Shown here one piece after another: positions 694 to 18,704 of a DNA stretch of 34,489 bases. The stretch lies in IMG/VR virus record IMGVR_UViG_2541047695_000003. The stretch is one strand, 5' to 3'. The notes under the pieces are model-generated. The model worked only from the letters and a program-made list of their open reading frames with translations, was not told the origin of the DNA and searched no databases. The number at the start of each line of letters is the position of its first letter. Position 1 is the first letter of the stretch. Source of the DNA: a virus. Taxonomy: Duplodnaviria > Heunggongvirae > Uroviricota > Caudoviricetes. Position numbers and translations under genes: made by a program.

Positions 694-717
694 GGGACTC
701 TTCGGAGTCCCTTTTTT
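694..717. terminator. Terminator hairpin shared by converging transcription
   Basis: GGGACTC-TTCG-GAGTCCC followed by T6 on the + strand; abuts the stop codon (716-718) of the minus-strand gene. Confidence 0.7.
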
Positions 718-1660
718 ATTGGCAGTAAGAAAAGTTAGTACCGTACATTTCATCATGAAGCATTGCAACATTGCGTTTCTGTTCTTCTTCCTCGTCTACC
801 GCATCACTAGAAAAATGAGATTTGCCCTTAAAAGAACGAAGCAATTGCAGTGCAGCCATCGGATCACGCATCACATCGATTTTCACTTCTACTTCATCAT
901 TTGCGGCCTCATCAGCCGCATTTTCAACTACTGCCACCGGAGCAACTTCTTTAGCTTTCAGTTCTTCAATCTCAGCTTTCTGTGCTTCGATGATCTGGTC
1001 TTTTTCTTTCAGTGCAGCTTTCAGTTCTGCGATCTGTGCTTCCAGTGCAGAGAAACGATCTTCAACAGCAACCGGAGAAACAGCATTAACCTGTGCTTCC
1101 AGTTCTACGAAAGCGTCGCAAGATTCAATACGTGCTTTTTCTTCACCTTCATATGCAACCAGTTCTACTACTTCTTTCTCAGTAGCGTGGCTGTTAAAGA
1201 ATACAGCAAAGTAAGGATTGCCGGATTTGGTGAAGTTCAGTTTAGCTTTTCCGGTAACTTCTTTACGACGACCAAAGGTAATGTTGCAATCAGCGGTATC
1301 CTGAAAATCCATGTTAGGAGCGGAAACGATAGCAGTATCACCAGCAATCACTAGGTGGAACAGTTCAGAAGAGTTCTTAACGGTGAAAGTAACGATGTGG
1401 TCTACTGCAACGTCTTTAGCAGGTTTAACGCGGTCGATTGCTTTACGAATGCCGTTAGGCAGTTTACCGTCAACACCAAAGCCAGCCGCGATCAGTGCTT
1501 CACGATGTGCTTTAAAGCCAGCGAAAGCGGATTTCTGCTGCGCAAAGGAAACATGAGCAACAACTTTCGGCTGAATCTTCTTGTTTGCTTCGGTGCCAAA
1601 TTTGATAACTGCTTTAGCGTTGGTTACTTCGTTAGTGAAAAAGTTAGCGGAAAATAACAT
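716..1660 (-). CDS. Abundant early protein: beta-rich N-domain, central coiled coil, acidic C-terminal region; function unknown (ssDNA-binding or annealing role is a guess)
   Basis: 314-aa ORF, GGAG SD 8 nt upstream, strongly optimised codons (cgt, ggt, ctg, gaa), heptad-like AQIAELKAALKEKDQIIEAQKAEIEELKAKE, acidic DAVDEEEEQ. Confidence 0.9.
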   Translation of the reverse strand: MLFSANFFTNEVTNAKAVIKFGTEANKKIQPKVVAHVSFAQQKSAFAGFKAHREALIAAGFGVDGKLPNGIRKAIDRVKPAKDVAVDHIVTFTVKNSSELFHLVIAGDTAIVSAPNMDFQDTADCNITFGRRKEVTGKAKLNFTKSGNPYFAVFFNSHATEKEVVELVAYEGEEKARIESCDAFVELEAQVNAVSPVAVEDRFSALEAQIAELKAALKEKDQIIEAQKAEIEELKAKEVAPVAVVENAADEAANDEVEVKIDVMRDPMAALQLLRSFKGKSHFSSDAVDEEEEQKRNVAMLHDEMYGTNFSYCQ

Positions 1661-2858: not shown

Positions 2859-2878
2859 AGGAGGGCGTAGCCCGACTG
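2859..2878 (+). repeat. Left copy of a 20-nt direct repeat AGGAGGGC-nnn-GCCCGACTG
   Basis: AGGAGGGCGTAGCCCGACTG; differs from the right copy only in the 3 central nt of the GGGC/GCCC dyad. Confidence 0.7.
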
Positions 2879-2920
2879 CGCGAAGCGCTAACCAATTACT
2901 TCTAGTAACAACTAATTTAA

Positions 2921-2939
2921 ACTAGATGATACTAGATGG
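2921..2939 (+). repeat. CTAG-rich repeat ACTAGATGATACTAGATGG
   Basis: Near-identical to 3123-3140; further CTAG motifs at about 2901, 2956, 3057 and 3074. Confidence 0.6.
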
Positions 2940-3122
2940 TCTTAGAAGGAATTAACTAGTTTGCTCGCTCGCTTCGCTCACTCTCAAACGTCTGCGACGC
3001 CACTGCGTGGCATCGAGAATCACTTCTGAAAGGATTTTCTCGAAAGGGATTTAATACTAGTTACTAACTGATTCTAGAAAGATAGTAATAATCACTTTGA
3101 AGATAATAGTAGTTAACTGGTT

Positions 3123-3140
3123 ACTAGATGATTCTAGATC
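3123..3140 (+). repeat. CTAG-rich repeat ACTAGATGATTCTAGATC
   Basis: Second copy of the 2921-2939 motif; followed by ATCACTT, which also occurs at about 3020 and 3091. Confidence 0.6.
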
Positions 3141-3167
3141 ACTTTAATGATCATGAAAGGTATTGGT

Positions 3168-3197
3168 ATCCCTTCGGGATTGCAACCTTCGGTTGCT
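3168..3197 (+). other. Two abutting UUCG-capped stem-loops (candidate structured RNA or processing site)
   Basis: ATCCC-TTCG-GGGAT (3168-3181) immediately followed by GCAACC-TTCG-GGTTGC (3182-3197); no U-tract after either. Confidence 0.5.
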
Positions 3198-3289
3198 AAA
3201 TTGCTTCCTGATTATTATTTCTCCAAAAGAAAGATTATTATATTCTAAAGATACTTCTTCGTTTTGATCATAATTTAATCAAATCATGA

Positions 3290-3309
3290 AGGAGGGCTTT
3301 GCCCGACTG
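3290..3309 (+). repeat. Right copy of the 20-nt direct repeat
   Basis: AGGAGGGCTTTGCCCGACTG, 431 bp downstream of the left copy. Confidence 0.7.
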
Positions 3310-3346
3310 AATACAATCACCTTTCATAATAACAAGAATTTTCTCT

Positions 3347-3378
3347 TTATAAATAATAGTGAACTTACTTGATTCACT
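3347..3378 (+). promoter_or_regulatory. TTATAAATA box plus AGTGAA...TTCACT leader hairpin upstream of the first rightward gene
   Basis: TTATAAATA 3347-3355, AGTGAA 3358-3363, TTCACT 3373-3378; near-identical arrangement at 30229-30268. Confidence 0.5.
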
Positions 3379-3398
3379 TTCTTTTAGAGGATACCACT

Positions 3399-3848
3399 AT
3401 GATCAATACTAAAACTCCTTTCGTACTTCTGGGTCTGGACTCTGAAAACTATGGTAACTTCCATATGCTAGAAGTTTTCGCTCATCGTGGTTATAACATC
3501 ATTCGTCATTCCGAAGACTCCAACTACTCAACTGCTTTCTACGCTTTAAAACGAAATGGTCGTCCTACTGTGATCATCGACTGTTTTACTGATGAGGGTC
3601 GTCTTCAATACAACGATATTCCAGCAATTATTGTTCGTGATGATCTGCCGTTTCAAGTCCGTTCCGGTGACATTGACCTGGGTAGCTTCTTGACTCTTCG
3701 TGAACTGGATGAAGCAATGTTTAATTACGGTAAAGAAACCGCTCAGGAAGCCCCAGAACAAGATGAGGAAGACGAAGACTACGCACCAATCGCTTTCTCT
3801 TCTCACGGTGGCTTCTACGGTTACGACGAAGGCTTAGATATGCTGTAA
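3399..3848 (+). CDS. Acidic early protein, 149 aa, unknown function
   Basis: ATG 3399 with AGAGGA SD (the 3369 start in the track is TTG); optimised codons; 28 D+E against 11 K+R; tail EAPEQDEEDEDYAPIAFSSHGGFYGYDEGLDML. Confidence 0.85.
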   Translation: MINTKTPFVLLGLDSENYGNFHMLEVFAHRGYNIIRHSEDSNYSTAFYALKRNGRPTVIIDCFTDEGRLQYNDIPAIIVRDDLPFQVRSGDIDLGSFLTLRELDEAMFNYGKETAQEAPEQDEEDEDYAPIAFSSHGGFYGYDEGLDML

Positions 3849-14180: not shown

Positions 14181-17100
14181 ATGCAGTCGATCCAATTTAA
14201 ACGAACAAATGTTTCTGGCAAAAAACCAACGCCGGAACAATTACAGGTCGGTGAGGTAGCAATCAACCTTAAAGACCATGTTATTTTTACCAAAGACCGA
14301 GATCATGAAGTAGTTCAAATCTCTGTTTCTCCTGAAACTCACGCGGCACTAGAATCTAAAGTTGATGCTAATAAAAAAGAACTGGATAGCACAATTGCAG
14401 TAAATGACCGCAATATTCACGCTAAAGTAGATGAAATTAAACAAACTACTGATGCAACCATCGCAGCAAATCACGCAGAAATTAACAATAAAGTTGATGT
14501 AATTAAACGCGAAACCGACGCGACAATCGAGGCCAATAAAAATAAAGCTGCTTCCGATCTTGCTGGTGTTAAAGCTGAATTGTCGGATACCATCAACGCT
14601 AATAAAAATGCGGCTGCTGTAGCAACTCAGGAACTGGACACCCGCATCAATAAAAAAGTTGATGATATTAAATCCCGTACCGATGCAACCATCGCAAGCA
14701 ATGACAAAGCAATCAATGACAAAGTTGATTTGATTAAGGCAGAAACTGACCGCACTATCGCAGCAAATCACGCCTATGCGGAAAATCAGTTAACTGACAC
14801 CTACAATAACCTTACTGGTGTGATTGCAGCCAATAAGCAAGAGGCAGCGGATAACGTCGCAGCATTAACCCGTGATGTTGAAGCCAAAAATACAGCAATT
14901 CATAGCAAAGTTGACAATAACAAGTCTTACACTGATTCTGAATTGGCACGTTTAGAAAGCCGTATTGATGCAGCCGATGGATCTGCTGATGGCAAGTACA
15001 TCAAAAAACACGTAAACACTTATACTGATGGTTATTTGCTGTCTAAGACCGCAAACTATTTTGATGATCCAAATGCGCGTAATCTTGATTACTTTGGTGC
15101 ATTCCGCATGAATGACCTGGCGGGTCATATTGCAATGATCTTGCATGTTCCGCATCCATCTGGTGTTAATCATGCTCGTGGCTTCGAGTTCACTTATGGG
15201 TCTAATCCACATGCTACTGTAAGAACATACGGCTATGATGAATTGGGACATTTGGCATATTCTCACCGCATGTATCATGAAGGTGATAAACCTACTCCGG
15301 CTGAAATTGGCGCATATTCGAAAGCAGAAATTGACCGACTGTTCCAGAAGACGCTTAATTTTGGTATCGAGGGTGGTTGGTTTAAACTAGGCACTTTGAC
15401 AATGCCACAACAACACGGTCGCACGGCTAAGATCCGTTTGGTTGGTGGTAACGGTTATAACGTAGGACATAATGGACAAGCCAATATTATCGAATTGGTG
15501 ATTCGATGCGGCAACAATAGCCCGAAAGGTGTTGTATTCAATGCGTATTATACTATTTGGCATCATGAACAACATTTTTGCGCTATTCCAACCGATGGCG
15601 ACAATTACGATCTTTACGCTTACTACGGTGCACATACAGGATTTGTTTTAGCAGAATATCAAGTTTCTTCCGGTGGTGTTTCTTTAAACCTGTTGGATAC
15701 TCCTGAATATCTGGGTGGTGAAAAACCTGTTGCAGATGAAATTTTTGATGCTCTTAACATTTCATCGTTCAATAACTTTAGCAACCGTGGGACGTTAAAT
15801 TTTGCTGGCAATCATCAAGGCCAATATGATATTGAGCATTTAAACGAACAACCGACAAATGCTAAAAAGATGTTGCGTCGCTTCCGTAGTTGTGCACCAG
15901 CTACAATCTGGCATGAGACAGTTGATGATAACGCATATCGTCTTGCTACTGGATACGAAGATACAAATCAGGAATTATTGCTGTCAGCAACATCCGGGTT
16001 ACATGTCAAGAAATTAACATTGGATGGCGGTGTTACTGGAAATTCTGGTATTGATATTCGTCGAGGACCAAACGAATCAAGCCATTTTAATTTCATGGAT
16101 TATCGCACTGGACAAGATGTTCGTAATGGCTGGTTTGGCTTCGGTGATGGTCAGACCAAAGATTTTATTTGGTGGAACGATAACGGTCAAAACTCTATAA
16201 ACCTGATTGAAGATGGTGAATTGCATATTACTGGCGGTAAAGGCCAGAAAATTGTAATGAATAGCGAAGTTGCATTATCTGAAAATGCTCGTTTGGCTGT
16301 CAAAGGTGGTAACTATGGTTTAATCCTTCGTAATGATGGTTCTAGCTTCCATATTCTTACTACCGATTTAAAAGATTCCTTTGGGACGTGGAACACTCGT
16401 AGACCATTTAGTTATGATTTCGCCGAAGGTGGATTAGATCTAGGTGGCACAGCTACCGCACGCTGTTTACATCTGGGAATTGATGGTAGCACCCGCATCG
16501 AAGATAATATGGTGTTTAGATCAGGGTCTCGTCAGTCAATGGACTATATTGAATTAATCCATTGGGGTAACAGTAATACCGCTCGTAACAACGTTTTGAG
16601 TATGAAAGACTCGAAAGGATTCCTTGCTGAATTTGAACGCGTGGGGGGTACTAACGGCGTTAAAACCAGATTCTTTGGCGAAACATTCACTGACGGTACA
16701 TTATACCTAAATCAGATGAATAATAGCTCTGAACGATTCTCTATCAATAACTGGGGAAATTCAGAAGTTGGTCGCGCGGCAGTGATGGAAGTCGGTGATT
16801 CCAAAGGTTATCACTTCTATACTGAACGTAGGACAGATAACAGTTTGATGTTTGATGTTGCTGGCGCTTTTACTGTGCATGGACCTTCCGGGATTACTAT
16901 CAAAAACTCTGCTGGTGCTCGCCACGTCTGGTTTAGAGATGATAGCGATACGGAAAAGGCTGTTATCTGGGCTACAGATGAGGGTATTTTACATATTCGC
17001 AATAACCACGGTGGACAATTTACACATCACTTCCAGGGCGCGATGATTAAACTGGAAGGGCGTGTTCCTTATGCCGCAGATCAAGGACTTATCCGTGGTG

Positions 17101-17705
17101 AGGTTTCTGGTGGTGCATATGTTGCATGGAGAGACCGACCTGCTGGTTTGTTGGTTGACTGTCAACAAAGCGTTGATAGTGCTCATGCTATTTGGAAAGC
17201 GGTTGATTGGGGGCGTAACTACATCGCTGCTATGGACGTTCATTGTCCCGGTGATAGTAATAATACTGCGGCAGCGGTTCTTCATGTTCAGGGTGCTGAT
17301 TATCAATTCCATGCAAGTGGAGAATTTCATGCCACTGGTAACGGAAACTTTAACGATGTTTATATTCGTTCCGATCGTCGTCTGAAAATTAATGTTGAAG
17401 ATTACGAAGAAAATGCGGTGGATAAGGTAAATAAACTCAAAGTTAAAACCTACGATAAAGTTAAATCTCTTAATGACCGAGAAGTTATAGGTCATGAGAT
17501 TGGTATTATCGCACAGGATTTACAAGAGGTATTACCGGAAGCTGTTAAAACCGCAAAAATTGGTGGTTTTGATAACCCAGAAGAAATTTTAACAATTTCA
17601 AACTCCGCAGTGAACGCGCTTTTAATTAAAGCGGTCCAAGAAATGAGCGAAGAAAATAAACTTCTTCGTGAACGTCTTGCTGCAATTGAAGCTAAATTAG
17701 GGTAA
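14181..17705 (+). CDS. Tail fibre with N-terminal anchor, coiled-coil repeats and a C-terminal self-cleaving chaperone domain
   Basis: 1174 aa; MQSIQFKRTNVSGKKPTPEQLQVGEVAINL fibre N-terminus; about 6 repeats of KVDxIKxxTDATIAxN; C-terminal SDRRLK motif. Confidence 0.9.
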   Translation: MQSIQFKRTNVSGKKPTPEQLQVGEVAINLKDHVIFTKDRDHEVVQISVSPETHAALESKVDANKKELDSTIAVNDRNIHAKVDEIKQTTDATIAANHAEINNKVDVIKRETDATIEANKNKAASDLAGVKAELSDTINANKNAAAVATQELDTRINKKVDDIKSRTDATIASNDKAINDKVDLIKAETDRTIAANHAYAENQLTDTYNNLTGVIAANKQEAADNVAALTRDVEAKNTAIHSKVDNNKSYTDSELARLESRIDAADGSADGKYIKKHVNTYTDGYLLSKTANYFDDPNARNLDYFGAFRMNDLAGHIAMILHVPHPSGVNHARGFEFTYGSNPHATVRTYGYDELGHLAYSHRMYHEGDKPTPAEIGAYSKAEIDRLFQKTLNFGIEGGWFKLGTLTMPQQHGRTAKIRLVGGNGYNVGHNGQANIIELVIRCGNNSPKGVVFNAYYTIWHHEQHFCAIPTDGDNYDLYAYYGAHTGFVLAEYQVSSGGVSLNLLDTPEYLGGEKPVADEIFDALNISSFNNFSNRGTLNFAGNHQGQYDIEHLNEQPTNAKKMLRRFRSCAPATIWHETVDDNAYRLATGYEDTNQELLLSATSGLHVKKLTLDGGVTGNSGIDIRRGPNESSHFNFMDYRTGQDVRNGWFGFGDGQTKDFIWWNDNGQNSINLIEDGELHITGGKGQKIVMNSEVALSENARLAVKGGNYGLILRNDGSSFHILTTDLKDSFGTWNTRRPFSYDFAEGGLDLGGTATARCLHLGIDGSTRIEDNMVFRSGSRQSMDYIELIHWGNSNTARNNVLSMKDSKGFLAEFERVGGTNGVKTRFFGETFTDGTLYLNQMNNSSERFSINNWGNSEVGRAAVMEVGDSKGYHFYTERRTDNSLMFDVAGAFTVHGPSGITIKNSAGARHVWFRDDSDTEKAVIWATDEGILHIRNNHGGQFTHHFQGAMIKLEGRVPYAADQGLIRGEVSGGAYVAWRDRPAGLLVDCQQSVDSAHAIWKAVDWGRNYIAAMDVHCPGDSNNTAAAVLHVQGADYQFHASGEFHATGNGNFNDVYIRSDRRLKINVEDYEENAVDKVNKLKVKTYDKVKSLNDREVIGHEIGIIAQDLQEVLPEAVKTAKIGGFDNPEEILTISNSAVNALLIKAVQEMSEENKLLRERLAAIEAKLG
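17370..17702 (+). other. Peptidase S74-type intramolecular chaperone auto-processing domain of the fibre
   Basis: SDRRLKINV...IGIIAQDLQEVLPEAV...LLRERLAAIEAKLG matches the endosialidase / T5 L-shaped-fibre C-terminal chaperone pattern. Confidence 0.75.
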
Positions 17706-17743
17706 TTGGAAAGCGGGGAGAAATCTCCGCTAAGGATTCTTAT

Positions 17744-18040
17744 ATGGGATATTGGGTAAGTAGTGAAATTAATACTAAAATCGATGCTTTAAAATGGCAT
17801 GTATTTGATATTCCTAACGGCTATGGTACTGCTCGTGCTGGTGTCGCTGTAATGCGTCATAATGCTGGTGGTGGGTGGTCTGATGCACATATTAACGTAG
17901 ATGGTTTGACCGTTGCTCGTCGTCGTGGTGGGACCAATTGGGGATCTACTATAAATTCGTTTGTTCCTGCTGGCTGCACCGTCTCCTTTGGTTTAGGGGG
18001 TGAAGGTGGTGTTGAATATTTTAAATTCATGGAGTTTTAA
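17744..18040 (+). CDS. Small Gly-rich protein, FDIPNG paralog 1 of 3
   Basis: 98 aa; conserved xW, FDIPNG(W/Y), GL, WG, V(S/T)F, YFKF blocks shared with the next two genes. Confidence 0.85.
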   Translation: MGYWVSSEINTKIDALKWHVFDIPNGYGTARAGVAVMRHNAGGGWSDAHINVDGLTVARRRGGTNWGSTINSFVPAGCTVSFGLGGEGGVEYFKFMEF

Positions 18041-18042
18041 TT

Positions 18043-18348
18043 ATGGCTGGATGGATAAATCAAAGAATGTCAAACGCTATTAGTATTTGGGCTAATGGTG
18101 GATATTTTGATATCCCCAACGGCTGGGTTACTGATTCATGCGGAATTGTTTTTGCTCATATGGAAGCCATTAACGGTGCTGGTGATCTTGATTCTGAATT
18201 GGCTGTAAATGGATTGATTGAATCAGGTCATCATGCTGGTGATGCTGGGAGTTGGGGCGCTAGTTCTTTAGTTGGCGCTGGTGCTACCGTTAGCTTTACA
18301 TTGGGTAAAGGTAGTTTGCATTATTTTAAATTCAGGAGAATGCACTAA
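18043..18348 (+). CDS. Small Gly-rich protein, FDIPNG paralog 2 of 3
   Basis: 101 aa; starts 2 nt after the paralog 1 stop. Confidence 0.85.
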   Translation: MAGWINQRMSNAISIWANGGYFDIPNGWVTDSCGIVFAHMEAINGAGDLDSELAVNGLIESGHHAGDAGSWGASSLVGAGATVSFTLGKGSLHYFKFRRMH

Positions 18349-18650
18349 TGGCATTTTGGGTAGATGGCGCTTTGGGGAATAGGGCGGGTAAAGCAAATCA
18401 AGGATGGTTTGATATTCCTAACGGTTGGACAGCCGACGCTTTCGGGACTATTTCATTCTGTGCTCATTCTTCCGGTGGTGGCGGTGGTGACTCTGAATTG
18501 CTTATTCATGGTTTGTGTGTTTCTGGAAGCCATAAGGGTCATGATTGGGGACAGATTCATTCTTGTATTGCACCGCAAGGGGCGGTAATTACCGTTAGCA
18601 CAAATAGGGGGATCGCTCATCTTCGTTATAGACGTTTGAGCAACCGCTAA
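18348..18650 (+). CDS. Small Gly-rich protein, FDIPNG paralog 3 of 3
   Basis: 100 aa; TAATG overlap with paralog 2. Confidence 0.85.
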   Translation: MAFWVDGALGNRAGKANQGWFDIPNGWTADAFGTISFCAHSSGGGGGDSELLIHGLCVSGSHKGHDWGQIHSCIAPQGAVITVSTNRGIAHLRYRRLSNR

Positions 18651-18704
18651 ATAAATAGAATTACGGGTATGTGCCCTATTGTTTAAAATAGAAGGAAAAG
18701 AATA

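Follow-up and report, generated by a model that had tools for sequence, protein, structure and literature searches.

The unifying feature of positions 2859-3309 is a cluster of d(C-GNA-G) 'mini-hairpin DNA' triloops, carried on both strands. The segment forms the right half of a ~1.2-kb gene-free control region between divergent early operons, lies next to an iteron array, and may, in the reading that we tentatively favour, be the unwinding and priming half of an iteron-type replication origin. As we discuss below, compensated hairpin stems and iterons that co-vary with a 314-aa protein bear on this reading, and transcriptional, packaging and recombinational roles have to be weighed against it.

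The prophage and its control region

The window, by which we mean the whole stretch of 34,489 nucleotides analysed, is an uncharacterised E. coli prophage of ~36 kb in hicB, the two halves of which flank it. Matching sequence was present in 58 of 5426 complete E. coli genomes, and a genome scan of GTDB with the large terminase (TerL) returned a single distant relative, in Atlantibacter. IMG/VR records that reach hicB stop at the chromosomal flanks, and a literature search on hicB-integrated prophages gave nothing relevant. The family occurs in ~1% of complete E. coli genomes, pig and human isolates among them, and one member carries an ISApl1-mcr-1 insertion. The largest ORFs encode tail proteins, the large serine recombinase is the prophage integrase, and no tRNA or tmRNA genes were found.

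In every relative, the gap kept its position between a leftward operon (encoding 60-aa and 314-aa proteins) and a rightward operon that encodes a Rha/antirepressor-like protein. Apart from this Rha-like protein and the serine integrase, the early proteins matched no Pfam family above cut-off, which leaves the phage dependent on host enzymes and sites acting in cis; neither a CI-type repressor nor replication genes were recognisable in the prophage. The description of the segment as ORF-free holds in practice, as only two ORFs of 33-34 aa overlap it, both are broken by indels in relatives, and in none of the 58 genomes does the matching stretch have an annotated feature. The features of the region are as follows.

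716-1660, bottom strand: gene for the 314-aa protein, which has a coiled coil and is present with type A iterons
2510-2720, top strand: iteron array, nine copies of TTTTTGCCCCTGAAA at spacings of 13, 21-22, 30 and 41 bp, with an inverted copy at 2760
2819-2827, bottom strand: sole match of the window to the DnaA box TTWTNCACA, located after the iterons and ahead of the first 20-mer
2859-2878, top strand: 20-mer copy 1, AGGAGG with hairpin GGGC-GTA-GCCC (2863-2873) and GA-CTG, in type A or B iteron lineages only
2878-2888, top strand: mini-hairpin GCGC-GAA-GCGC, which includes GCGAAGC; the loop is GAA or GTA in relatives
2900-2960: first CTAG cluster, with CTAG at 2902, 2922, 2932 and 2956
2911-2947: three tandem 10-bp ACTAGATGAT-like units within the first CTAG cluster
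2962-3015, bottom strand: GC-rich block, in which GCTTCGC (2971-2977) is bottom-strand GCGAAGC
2989-2999 and 2999-3011, bottom strand: hairpins CGTC-TGC-GACG and GCCAC-TGC-GTGGC of the GC-rich block, with bottom-strand loops GCA of the GNA type
3019-3053: start of the widely shared right half, a ATCACTTC-T-GAAAGGAT dyad and GAAAGGGAT
3056-3145: second CTAG cluster, with two 23-bp CTAG-ended repeats (3056-3078 and 3116-3138)
3091 and 3138: ATCACTTT half-sites in the second CTAG cluster
3168-3196, bottom strand: adjacent mini-hairpins ATCCC-TTC-GGGAT (3168) and GCAACC-TTC-GGTTGC (3182), bottom-strand C-GAA-G triloops
3200-3289: AT-rich stretch (78-80% A+T), a candidate unwinding element, containing the dyad TTTGAT-N9-ATCAAA
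3290-3309, top strand: 20-mer copy 2, hairpin GGGC-TTT-GCCC (3294-3304) with conserved flanks GAAGGAGG and GACTGAAT
3348-3398, top strand: invariant TATAAATA (3348-3355) and conserved leader TTGATTCACTTTCTTTTAGAGGA, upstream of the 149-aa gene (ATG at 3399)

The initial annotation had singled out CTAG, and its density was borne out: eight copies lie at 2902-3137 against 1.45 per kb window-wide (Poisson P ~1e-7), a number reached by no other 451-bp window. The further short repeats that it listed, ACTAGATGATACTAGAT (2921), ACTAGATGATTCTAGAT (3123), copies of ATCACTT, and GAAAGGATTT / GAAAGGGATTT, were all found. The first CTAG cluster is without counterpart in type C and D lineages, and the second undergoes block deletions and swaps among relatives. 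The dyad and GAAAGGGAT at the start of the right half belong to an AAAGKGAT / ATCMCTTT motif family.

Mini-hairpins on both strands

The GC-rich mini-hairpins noted at first inspection lie where they had been placed and exceed chance expectation by far. Seven GC-rich triloop hairpins occur in the segment, six of which were found by a strict detector that missed the one at 3182 (only two G/C among the last four stem bases). Shuffled versions of the segment (n = 2000) contained a mean of 0.13 such hairpins and at most 2, compared with the 6-7 observed in 451 bp. In eight representative regions, 36 of 45 hairpins were of the C-GNA-G type (14 top-strand, 22 bottom-strand), and none of 23 in the coding DNA of the window was. 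The sequence d(GCGAAGC) is canonical mini-hairpin DNA (PMC13037366). Loops drift inside the GNA class, between GAA and GTA or, for hairpins on the opposite strand, TTC and TGC, and stems are maintained by compensatory change or by replacement of the whole hairpin; the pair at 3168-3196, for example, is swapped in some relatives for TGC-TTC-GCA plus GACGCTC-(3-4 nt)-GAGCGTC. The 2999-3011 hairpin can be extended to 9 bp on the bottom strand. We rejected a reading of the 3168 and 3182 hairpins as UUCG-tetraloop RNAs, as their stems are in register solely with a 3-nt loop.

By DNA folding, the hairpins are predicted to form on both strands, with folding z-scores of -4.1 (top) and -5.0 (bottom); equally good folding of both strands is what DNA-level symmetry would lead one to expect. 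G:T versus A:C stem variants, used as a strand test, gave one event each way only.

These results bear on the suggestion of a structured RNA locus. A rightward transcript from the TATAAAAC motif at 2739 would carry the hairpins as RNA, in a regulatory leader or non-coding RNA in which they would serve as stabilisers, in processing or antitermination, or in immunity like that of P4 CI or P1 c4 RNA exerted over the Rha/Ant-like operon. We consider this reading rather unlikely. It is consistent with several observations: the promoter-like TATAAAAC and ATTAACTTA occupy the same post-iteron place in types A and C, an antirepressor-like gene lies downstream with no CI-type repressor recognisable, the top strand folds well and three helices covary, and the repeated 20-mer contains AGGAGG, which resembles a Shine-Dalgarno sequence. 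Against it, Rfam returned 0 matches at gathering score, and relaxing the limit to an E of 5 added chance-level matches only, of which the best within the segment had E = 1.9; GNA triloops fall on either strand, and their 14:22 distribution would be odd for an RNA read from a single strand; the bottom strand folds at least as well as the top; the loops are triloops, the apparent UUCG loops being out of stem register; and a U-run follows none of the hairpins. In addition, AGGAGG is changed by a compensated stem substitution in some relatives (AGGATGG...GCCA), no complement to the 20-mer flanks lies between the two copies, and the 149-aa gene is preceded by an invariant promoter-like motif of its own that lies downstream of the segment, the TATAAATA/TTGATTCACTTTCTTTTAGAGGA cassette, which also precedes other non-structural prophage genes. 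The likeness to P4 CI and P1 c4 RNA lies in untranslated DNA with short repeats, upstream of an antirepressor or replication operon, where no protein repressor is visible; unlike those systems, the segment has no complementary 'seqB-like' element and no Rfam match, and its hairpin loops do not follow one strand. A mini-ORF after AGGAGG (TTG-CCC-GAC-TGA) was discarded, being missing from copy 1 and preceded by an altered AGGAGG in some relatives.

Conservation and exchange of blocks

The non-coding right half of the segment had a median nucleotide identity of 94.3% to relatives, compared with 83-90% for neighbouring genes. This conservation, together with the compensated stems, points to direct selection. 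Copy 2 of the 20-mer was found in 69 of 70 relatives examined, the diverged copy of the remaining one (L039) lying just outside the search pattern, and a divergent record (DCP80) has TGAAGG-CCC-GAA-GGG-ACTGAAC as its equivalent. Among the ~70 relatives, its stem changes in a compensatory manner (GGGC/GCCC, TGGC/GCCA, GGC/GCC) and its loop varies freely (TTT, TTTA, TAT, TA or GAA), in agreement with the earlier proposal that the dyad matters and its centre does not. Three helices showed covariation.

The two 20-mers themselves, AGGAGGGC-GTA-GCCCGACTG (2859-2878) and AGGAGGGC-TTT-GCCCGACTG (3290-3309), are present as described, 431 bp apart; they are 18/20-identical direct repeats and the only matches in the window with up to three mismatches (0.01 expected). 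The idea that they bound a unit did not survive comparison. Copy 1 was confined to 28 loci of iteron lineages A and B; at its position, the 39 loci of lineages C and D have unrelated hairpins (ACGGC-GTA-GCCGT; GCGCCC-TGCG-GGGCGC). Because copy 1 is lineage-specific and copy 2 nearly universal, the repeat-bounded 431 bp do not form an evolutionary unit.

Two such repeats at this distance, and a large serine recombinase encoded in the window, might evoke an excisable or invertible cassette or a small mobile element on which that enzyme acts. We regard this as highly improbable, and nothing supports a recombinase cassette or mobile element. First, matching sequence occupied 61 places in the 58 genomes, all chromosomal and more than one per genome in only three, and the prophage context was the same in 17 of 17 loci inspected. 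Second, exact deletion or inversion between the repeats was seen in no relative, and the upstream repeat was missing in the 39 loci that retain the right half. Third, the serine recombinase is the prophage integrase, and the two parts of hicB on either side of the prophage place attP elsewhere. The partition site also suggested would make little sense for an integrated prophage.

The control region is a mosaic of blocks that swap independently, and lineage-specific blocks, such as the left half that closes with the GC-rich block at 2962-3015, terminate at GC hairpins. The building blocks of the segment recur in the Atlantibacter prophage (L062), the DCP80 record and an intergenic region of the T4-like phage RB49. 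A plasmid collection gave no match. In a phage collection, the sole match was 75 bp of Krischvirus intergenic DNA: an unannotated intergenic repeat of RB49/Krischvirus matches positions 3209-3283 at 84% identity. According to a pattern scan of IMG/VR, the 75-bp motif is not dispersed but forms a pair of neighbouring copies within a single Krischvirus intergenic region. Tail-fibre genes are also common to the prophage and T4-like phages.

This mosaicism would fit hairpins that are recombination joints without a dedicated function, intergenic cassettes resembling the PeSLs of RB49 and phi1 that promote modular shuffling among related phages, a reading that we consider improbable. The likeness includes GC stem-loops in AT-rich intergenic DNA, block shuffling and literal sequence in common with RB49, in whose group stem-loop cassettes reportedly mediate shuffling (Arbiol et al., 2010; PMC2839356). 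A PeSL by definition joins a consensus sigma-70 promoter to a terminator stem-loop (with a poly-G/poly-C stem), and such cassettes flank ORFans throughout hyperplastic regions (PMC2839356). Here, promoter-like sites are no more frequent than expected (8 found against 8.0), U-runs are missing from the stems, and the hairpins, clustered in one control region, are GNA triloops and not terminators, so the defining promoter and terminator are absent and we rejected the PeSL assignment. The conservation of the right half above that of neighbouring genes, with compensated stems, also speaks against joints that lack a function.

Packaging, also suggested at first inspection, is a rival reading. We judge it unlikely that the gap is a cos or cosB-like region in which a large terminase of the lambda gpA type would cut and load. 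In that case, a protein akin to a small terminase, or one that bends DNA, would bind the CTAG and ATCACTTT repeats, and nicking would take place in or close to the universal 20-mer. The TerL of the prophage belongs to the gpA type, and a non-coding region lies upstream of TerL in three lineages with TerL only 43-50% identical, the E. coli prophages, Atlantibacter and the DCP80 record. In Atlantibacter an EndoVII-like gene separates the gap from TerL, in the DCP80 record two small ORFs do so, and in the window the segment lies 3 kb upstream of TerL with five genes in between. It is the sole large non-coding stretch seen near packaging genes, and its repeats are phased at 10 bp. The 314-aa protein consists of an N-terminal domain that varies, a coiled coil and a tail at the C-terminus, an architecture resembling that of small terminases. 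Several results nevertheless argue against packaging. Two TerL types (I and II, 58% identical) assort independently of every block of the segment. Phages with TerL 97-99% identical have a 20-mer stem plus loop of 9, 11 or 12 nt, a variation difficult to square with a nuclease site that is precise and symmetric. A hairpin in a cohesive end would impede annealing, and two potential cos copies 431 bp apart, as in type A phages, would be unstable. Metagenome contig ends were scattered (about 2894, 3008, 3043 and elsewhere) with no single pile-up, and the 314-aa gene lies in a leftward operon with LexA-like boxes rather than in a late operon. Like lambda cos (cosQ-cosN-cosB, upstream of Nu1-A), the gap is non-coding, has repeated, putative protein-binding sites and precedes a gpA-type terminase gene; unlike lambda cos, which spans ~200 bp, it spans 1.2 kb, has no adjacent small-terminase gene and no co-variation with TerL type, and its candidate dyad changes length among phages with near-identical TerL. 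The 149-aa protein found no support as a small terminase: it shows no homology, has no counterpart in the Atlantibacter and DCP80 relatives, and its variation does not follow that of the conserved motifs.

A candidate replication origin

The reading of the segment as the unwinding and priming half of an iteron-type origin gains from its neighbour. At least four sequence types of iterons (A-D) occur in the family, of which the array in the window is one. The gene for the 314-aa protein was found at every locus with a type A array, as well as at one (L011) with an IS3 insertion in the gap, and was undetectable in 23 of 23 other loci, although the p64 gene and promoter block between this gene and the iterons assort independently. 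This perfect co-variation suggests that the 314-aa protein is a candidate binder of the iterons; it could equally be a transcription factor or a packaging DNA-recognition subunit. It has no detectable homology to any initiator, of the Rep, O or pi type, and matched nothing in Pfam, PHROG or PDB sequences; searches of PDB sequences with the 314-, 201- and 149-aa proteins gave zero matches, and a single-sequence AF2 model of the 314-aa protein (pLDDT 43) was unusable for fold search. LexA-like boxes lie in the promoter region of its operon.

We propose, from the arrangement of these elements, that SOS damage would relieve LexA repression at the leftward promoter and allow the 314-aa protein to be made. 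This protein would bind the lineage-specific iterons at 2510-2720, and the neighbouring AT-rich DNA would then melt. Single-stranded DNA on both strands could snap into very stable C-GNA-G triloop mini-hairpins, which, on the model of RSF1010 ssiA/ssiB and of the complementary-strand origin of phage G4, may bind SSB poorly and hold the bubble open and may mark entry points for the host primase or primosome. The 20-mer, as a hairpin followed by GA and CTG, would have the arrangement of a DnaG start located 3' to a hairpin, and the 10-bp-phased CTAG repeats and the AAAGKGAT and ATCACTTT dyads are putative sites for accessory or regulatory proteins.

Multiple observations are consistent with this scheme. 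The position of the gap is conserved, and the early genes are without known replication families. The nine iterons co-vary with the 314-aa protein across an independently assorting spacer. The GC triloop hairpins outnumber those in shuffles and their stems are compensated; most hairpins in the representative regions are C-GNA-G, on both strands, whereas none of the 23 in coding DNA is. The stretch at 3200-3289 ranks among the 80-bp stretches richest in A+T in the window (up to 80%) and is flanked by hairpins. The only DnaA-box match lies between the iterons and the segment, where, by our own estimate, one would occur by chance in 1.5 kb with a frequency of ~0.09. The right half is more conserved than neighbouring genes, and the same grammar recurs in Atlantibacter L062, the DCP80 record and RB49. 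Finally, mini-hairpin DNA is documented at the G4 primase origin and, beside iterons, at RSF1010 ssiA (PMC13037366). On the other side, no replication protein is recognisable and the 314-aa protein lacks detectable initiator homology; the hairpins fall well short of characterised ssi or G4-type signals in size and have no sequence in common with them; classical iteron origins need no special priming signals; the region always lies upstream of the terminase gene, which would also fit cos; and the promoter-like motif at 2739 could transcribe the entire segment. CTG follows the hairpins of both 20-mers, conserved as GACTGAA in E. coli relatives and as ACTGAA in the DCP80 record, but is absent after the other five of the seven hairpins.

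Comparison with characterised systems shows how far each analogy reaches. RSF1010 (IncQ) oriV combines RepC iterons, an AT-rich region and the ssiA and ssiB signals. It resembles the control region in its direct-repeat iterons for a dedicated protein (a binding that is conjectural here), its AT-rich DNA and its opposite-strand C-GAA-G hairpins. It differs in having two 40-nt signals, compared with at least seven small hairpins over 450 bp interleaved with CTAG and ATCACTTT sites here, and no homologues of RepA, RepB' or RepC and no similarity to ssiA or ssiB sequences were detectable in the prophage. The G4 complementary-strand origin is a defined unit of ~100 nt with three hairpins, and priming there starts at a CTG just 3' of a hairpin. 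Stable hairpins are common to G4 and the segment, and the 20-mers have the order hairpin-GA-CTG; G4 is an ssDNA phage, however, and the hairpins of this dsDNA prophage are shorter (4-6 bp), with CTG after two of seven. No homology between the G4 origin and the segment was found. The GCGAAAGC mini-hairpin motif of G4 lies where primase makes the primer, with poor SSB binding proposed in a review; RSF1010 ssiA contains a CCGAAGG mini-hairpin, and ssi hairpins act only in single-stranded DNA (PMC13037366). Early promoters of phage N4, with 5-7-bp stems and 3-nt purine-rich loops (GGA or GAA), are likewise recognised by the virion RNA polymerase in an extruded single-stranded form (PMC13037366), but the prophage encodes no giant virion RNA polymerase.

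More broadly, and as a speculation to which we give low credence, clusters of d(C-GNA-G) on both strands of AT-rich DNA beside lineage-specific iterons might represent an undescribed kind of dsDNA-phage origin that recruits host primase for phages without replication genes of their own, a module exchanged horizontally between enterobacterial temperate siphophage-like prophages and T4-like Krischvirus phages (RB49, 97.4-97.8 kb).

Because the early proteins are unmatched apart from the Rha-like protein and no repressor or replication genes are recognisable, the biology of this prophage must be read from the 1.2-kb control region. The mini-hairpin DNA motif has so far been known from G4, RSF1010 ssiA and the N4 promoters, and a priming or unwinding role for the cluster would make this prophage its first natural example among temperate dsDNA phages. 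Should the region turn out to be a cos site or an RNA leader, the comparative map still indicates which elements to mutate. If the cluster does act in priming or unwinding, C-GNA-G triloops on both strands of AT-rich non-coding DNA would provide a signature for finding the origins of orphan phages, one that would also bear on the unexplained intergenic region of RB49-like phages.

The gap and its prophage setting

The window corresponds to a chromosomal prophage carried by 58 of 5426 complete E. coli genomes, a distribution that contradicts the recombinase role initially suggested for the flagged segment (2859-3309) and makes a recombinase cassette or mobile element scarcely credible. In strain BS74R-D, the prophage occupies ~37 kb, including a 1.3-kb IS, with one half of a split hicB on either side. 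Among its products are a large terminase of the lambda-gpA type (TerL), a portal, a capsid-protease fusion, lysis genes, a large serine integrase, and T4-like tail-fibre segments. Among the non-structural proteins, only a Rha-like protein matched a Pfam family, and just one other was annotated by PHROG. At 15044-18666, portions of a 1174-aa tail-fibre gene, together with the three small genes after it, have 79-94% nucleotide identity to long-tail-fibre distal-subunit regions of the T4-like genera Krischvirus and Tequatrovirus, which indicates recent exchange between this temperate siphophage-like prophage and virulent myophages.

The flagged segment lies in a gap, usually of 1.2-1.46 kb and unannotated under the match in every case, between an operon read leftward, for proteins of 64 and 314 aa, and one read rightward, for 149-aa, 110-aa, and Rha-like products, an arrangement identical in 17 of 17 genomes inspected. 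In strain PE15 (NZ_CP041628.1; locus L001, 5263-9916), an ISApl1-mcr-1.1-PAP2-ISApl1 composite (colistin resistance) has inserted in the prophage immediately left of the 314-aa gene.

Features of the gap, from left to right (window positions)
2057-2072, 2142-2157, 2160-2175: three LexA-box-like sites, CTG-N10-CAG (e.g., CTGTATATCTAACCAG)
2325 to 2297: strong leftward promoter, TTGACA-17-TATACT
2510-2720: array of nine TTTTTGCCCCTGAAA iterons
2859-3309: flagged segment, with 20-mers at 2859-2878 and 3290-3309
51 bp 5' of the 149-aa gene: invariant TATAAATA

The LexA-box-like sites lie between the leftward promoter and the 64-aa and 314-aa genes, and in the lineages compared by eye the first two fall within conserved sequence. 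Because no CI-type repressor was recognised in the prophage, host LexA may hold lysogeny directly. TATAAATA, the T4 late-promoter consensus, occurs seven times in the window versus 2.3 expected (1661, 2019(-), 2219(-), 3348, 4313, 30230, and 33541(-)). Of these copies, five are found 35-77 nt 5' of non-structural genes; the sequence TATAAATA-RTAGTGAA is common to two of the five, and a GAGGA...ACTATG start context to three. We recognised no gp55-like sigma factor.

Repeats and mini-hairpins of the segment

All elements listed in the initial annotation were recovered in place, and its description of the segment as ORF-free was sound, as the overlapping ORFs are just two, of 33-34 aa and non-conserved. 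The 20-mers are the sole matches in the 34.5-kb window with up to three mismatches allowed (0.01 expected). CTAG occurs eight times within 2902-3137, versus 1.45 per kb window-wide (Poisson P ~1e-7), and the segment ranks first in CTAG density among 451-bp windows of the sequence. CTAG occurs within ACTAGATGAT-type units with 10-bp phasing and within 23-bp units with CTAG at both start and end; ATCACTTT and its inverse AAAGKGAT are repeated in both orientations, and one relative has them as a perfect 26-bp palindrome. These CTAG units and ATCACTTT/AAAGKGAT repeats look like candidate protein-binding sites.

The segment contains seven GC-rich triloop hairpins (six recovered by a strict detector), compared to a mean of 0.13 in mono-nucleotide shuffles. 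In six of the seven, the 3-nt loop is GNA on one strand with C:G closing, on the top strand twice (GTA, GAA) and on the bottom strand four times (GCA, GCA, GAA, GAA). This C-GNA-G type accounts for 36 of 45 GC triloop hairpins (14 top, 22 bottom) in eight representative regions, namely the window, four other E. coli lineages, an Atlantibacter prophage and the first 1286 bp of the DCP80 record (TerL identities of 50% and 43%, respectively), and an RB49 intergenic region, and for 0 of 23 triloop hairpins in 25 kb of the window's coding DNA. Loop variants remain in the class (GAA/GTA; TTC/TGC on the other strand). By sequence, these hairpins are 'mini-hairpin DNA', d(GCGNAGC), a motif placed by a recent review in the G4 primase origin, RSF1010 ssiA, and N4 virion-polymerase promoters and reported there to bind SSB poorly (PMC13037366).

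A promoter-like TATAAAAC 3' of the iterons, and a Rha-like operon further downstream, would fit a transcribed leader or regulatory RNA, a reading made doubtful by the strand pattern of the loops and by the lack of terminators. Multiple results favour a DNA-level over an RNA reading. First, the loops belong to the GNA class. Second, stems are out of register with the apparent UUCG, and a tetraloop was rejected. Third, the two strands fold equally well (z of -4.1 and -5.0). Finally, no Rfam family matched.

Mosaic conservation and iteron partners

Relatives fall into at least four iteron lineages (A-D), with the window in type A. Within the segment, the left half (2859 to ~3015) lies in a lineage-specific part; at this position, type C loci carry ACGGC-GTA-GCCGT, GCGC-G(A/T)A-GCGC, and ACGCC-TAC-GGCGT, and type D loci carry GCGCCC-TGCG-GGGCGC. 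One type D relative has GCGCCC-CGCA-GGGCGC instead (L079 versus L012), an exact reverse complement of the loop, as expected for a template switch inside a DNA hairpin. The upstream 20-mer is restricted to 27 type A loci and one type B locus, where the 20-mers are 382-485 bp apart; in the 39 loci of types C and D, the downstream copy stands alone, so the proposal of a unit bounded by the 20-mers is not supported.

The downstream 20-mer is present in 69 of 70 relatives, with a visible diverged copy in the remaining locus (L039). Conservation extends to its flanks, GAAGGAGG and GACTGAAT; the stem has compensatory changes (GGGC/GCCC, TGGC/GCCA, GGC/GCC) and the loop varies (TTT, TTTA, TAT, TA, GAA), bearing out the earlier view of a dyad kept without its centre. 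Covariation was also seen in relatives: cells of the three right-hand helices were 99% paired, four pairs had double-sided changes, and the covariation score was reached by 0 of 500 shuffles, with few independent events behind the counts. Hairpins at 3168 and 3182 are invariant or swapped whole for other hairpins at that position. Median nucleotide identity of the right half (3136-3330) was 94.3% in 31 relatives, higher than for the neighbouring 149-aa (83%), 201-aa (90%), and Rha (87%) genes. Together with the iterons, these patterns show a mosaic segment, not a 20-mer-delimited unit, and indicate that it is functional.

At least four mutually unrelated iteron types occur in loci L001-L039 (TTTTTGCCCCTGAAA, AAATCCCCAAGATTCCA, AAACCTACAC, and ATCCCCG), each with its own ~310-345-aa partner protein of shared architecture (variable N-terminal domain, coiled coil, acidic stretch); type A and C partners have a short C-terminal LHD..Y.TN motif. 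The 314-aa protein (716-1660, minus strand; at least 89% identity) is encoded in all loci with a type A array, in one locus with IS3 in the gap, and in 0 of the 23 remaining loci. The 64-aa gene and promoter block, though located between the 314-aa gene and the iterons, assort independently; Rha, TerL, and the 149-aa protein do likewise. This co-variation thus argues for a functional protein-site pair, beyond mere linkage. Array and partner are a swappable specificity module. A cos or packaging region, favoured by the location of the gap 5' of TerL in each of three divergent lineages, is a less likely reading than an origin: there is no co-variation with TerL type, dyad length varies though TerL is near-identical, and contig ends are scattered.

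Similarity extends to T4-like phages. Positions 3209-3283, in a stretch of 80% A+T, are 84% identical to a motif occurring twice in a single RB49-group intergenic region, where TCCGC-GTA-GCGGA is followed by ACTTCTAGTAA at a spacing equal to the window's. PeSL-like recombination joints, after the promoter/stem-loop cassettes of this group, are an improbable explanation. In RB49 (NC_005066.1 97435-97847; L018 2247-2659), an unannotated 413-bp stretch separating RB49p165 from a DprA-like gene contains hairpins with GNA triloops, ACTTCTAGTAA, and TTCGTTTTGATCATAATTTAATCA in two copies, and is conserved in 59 Krischvirus records. The 141-kb 'Escherichia phage DCP80' record (PQ671644.1; L063 and L080), filed as a T4-like Gaprivervirus, looks chimeric: a 1286-bp non-coding start with hairpin, CTAG, and TATAAATA elements as in the window; a gpA-type terminase (43% identity to the window's) with head-gene-sized ORFs downstream of it, and an endolysin, in the first ~29 kb; and then motA, ndd, and two inverted rIIA copies. 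In Atlantibacter subterraneus, the sole relative found in GTDB, a T4 endonuclease VII-like gene (L062 6351-6806; PF02945 and PF09124) lies directly between a hairpin-rich 1.6-kb gap and TerL.

A possible replication origin

We tentatively favour reading the gap as a replication origin of the iteron type, in which the flagged segment would be the half that serves unwinding and priming. In this scheme, the 314-aa protein, likely SOS-induced, would bind the iterons and cause adjacent AT-rich DNA to melt; the bubble would be stabilised by mini-hairpins on both strands, which would also give host priming enzymes SSB-poor points of entry. The conserved hairpin-GA-CTG of the 20-mers resembles a DnaG start site. 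The anatomy, the co-variation of protein and iterons, the conservation, and the class and strand distribution of the hairpins are observed, and binding, melting, priming, and SOS control are deduced from them. Iteron origins, single-strand initiation (ssi) signals, and mini-hairpin DNA are known one by one; we know of no prior description of their combination, the literature searched included. Here, that combination joins a dense, two-stranded C-GNA-G triloop cluster to CTAG-phased repeats in a temperate dsDNA phage without recognisable replication genes, with echoes in T4-like phages.
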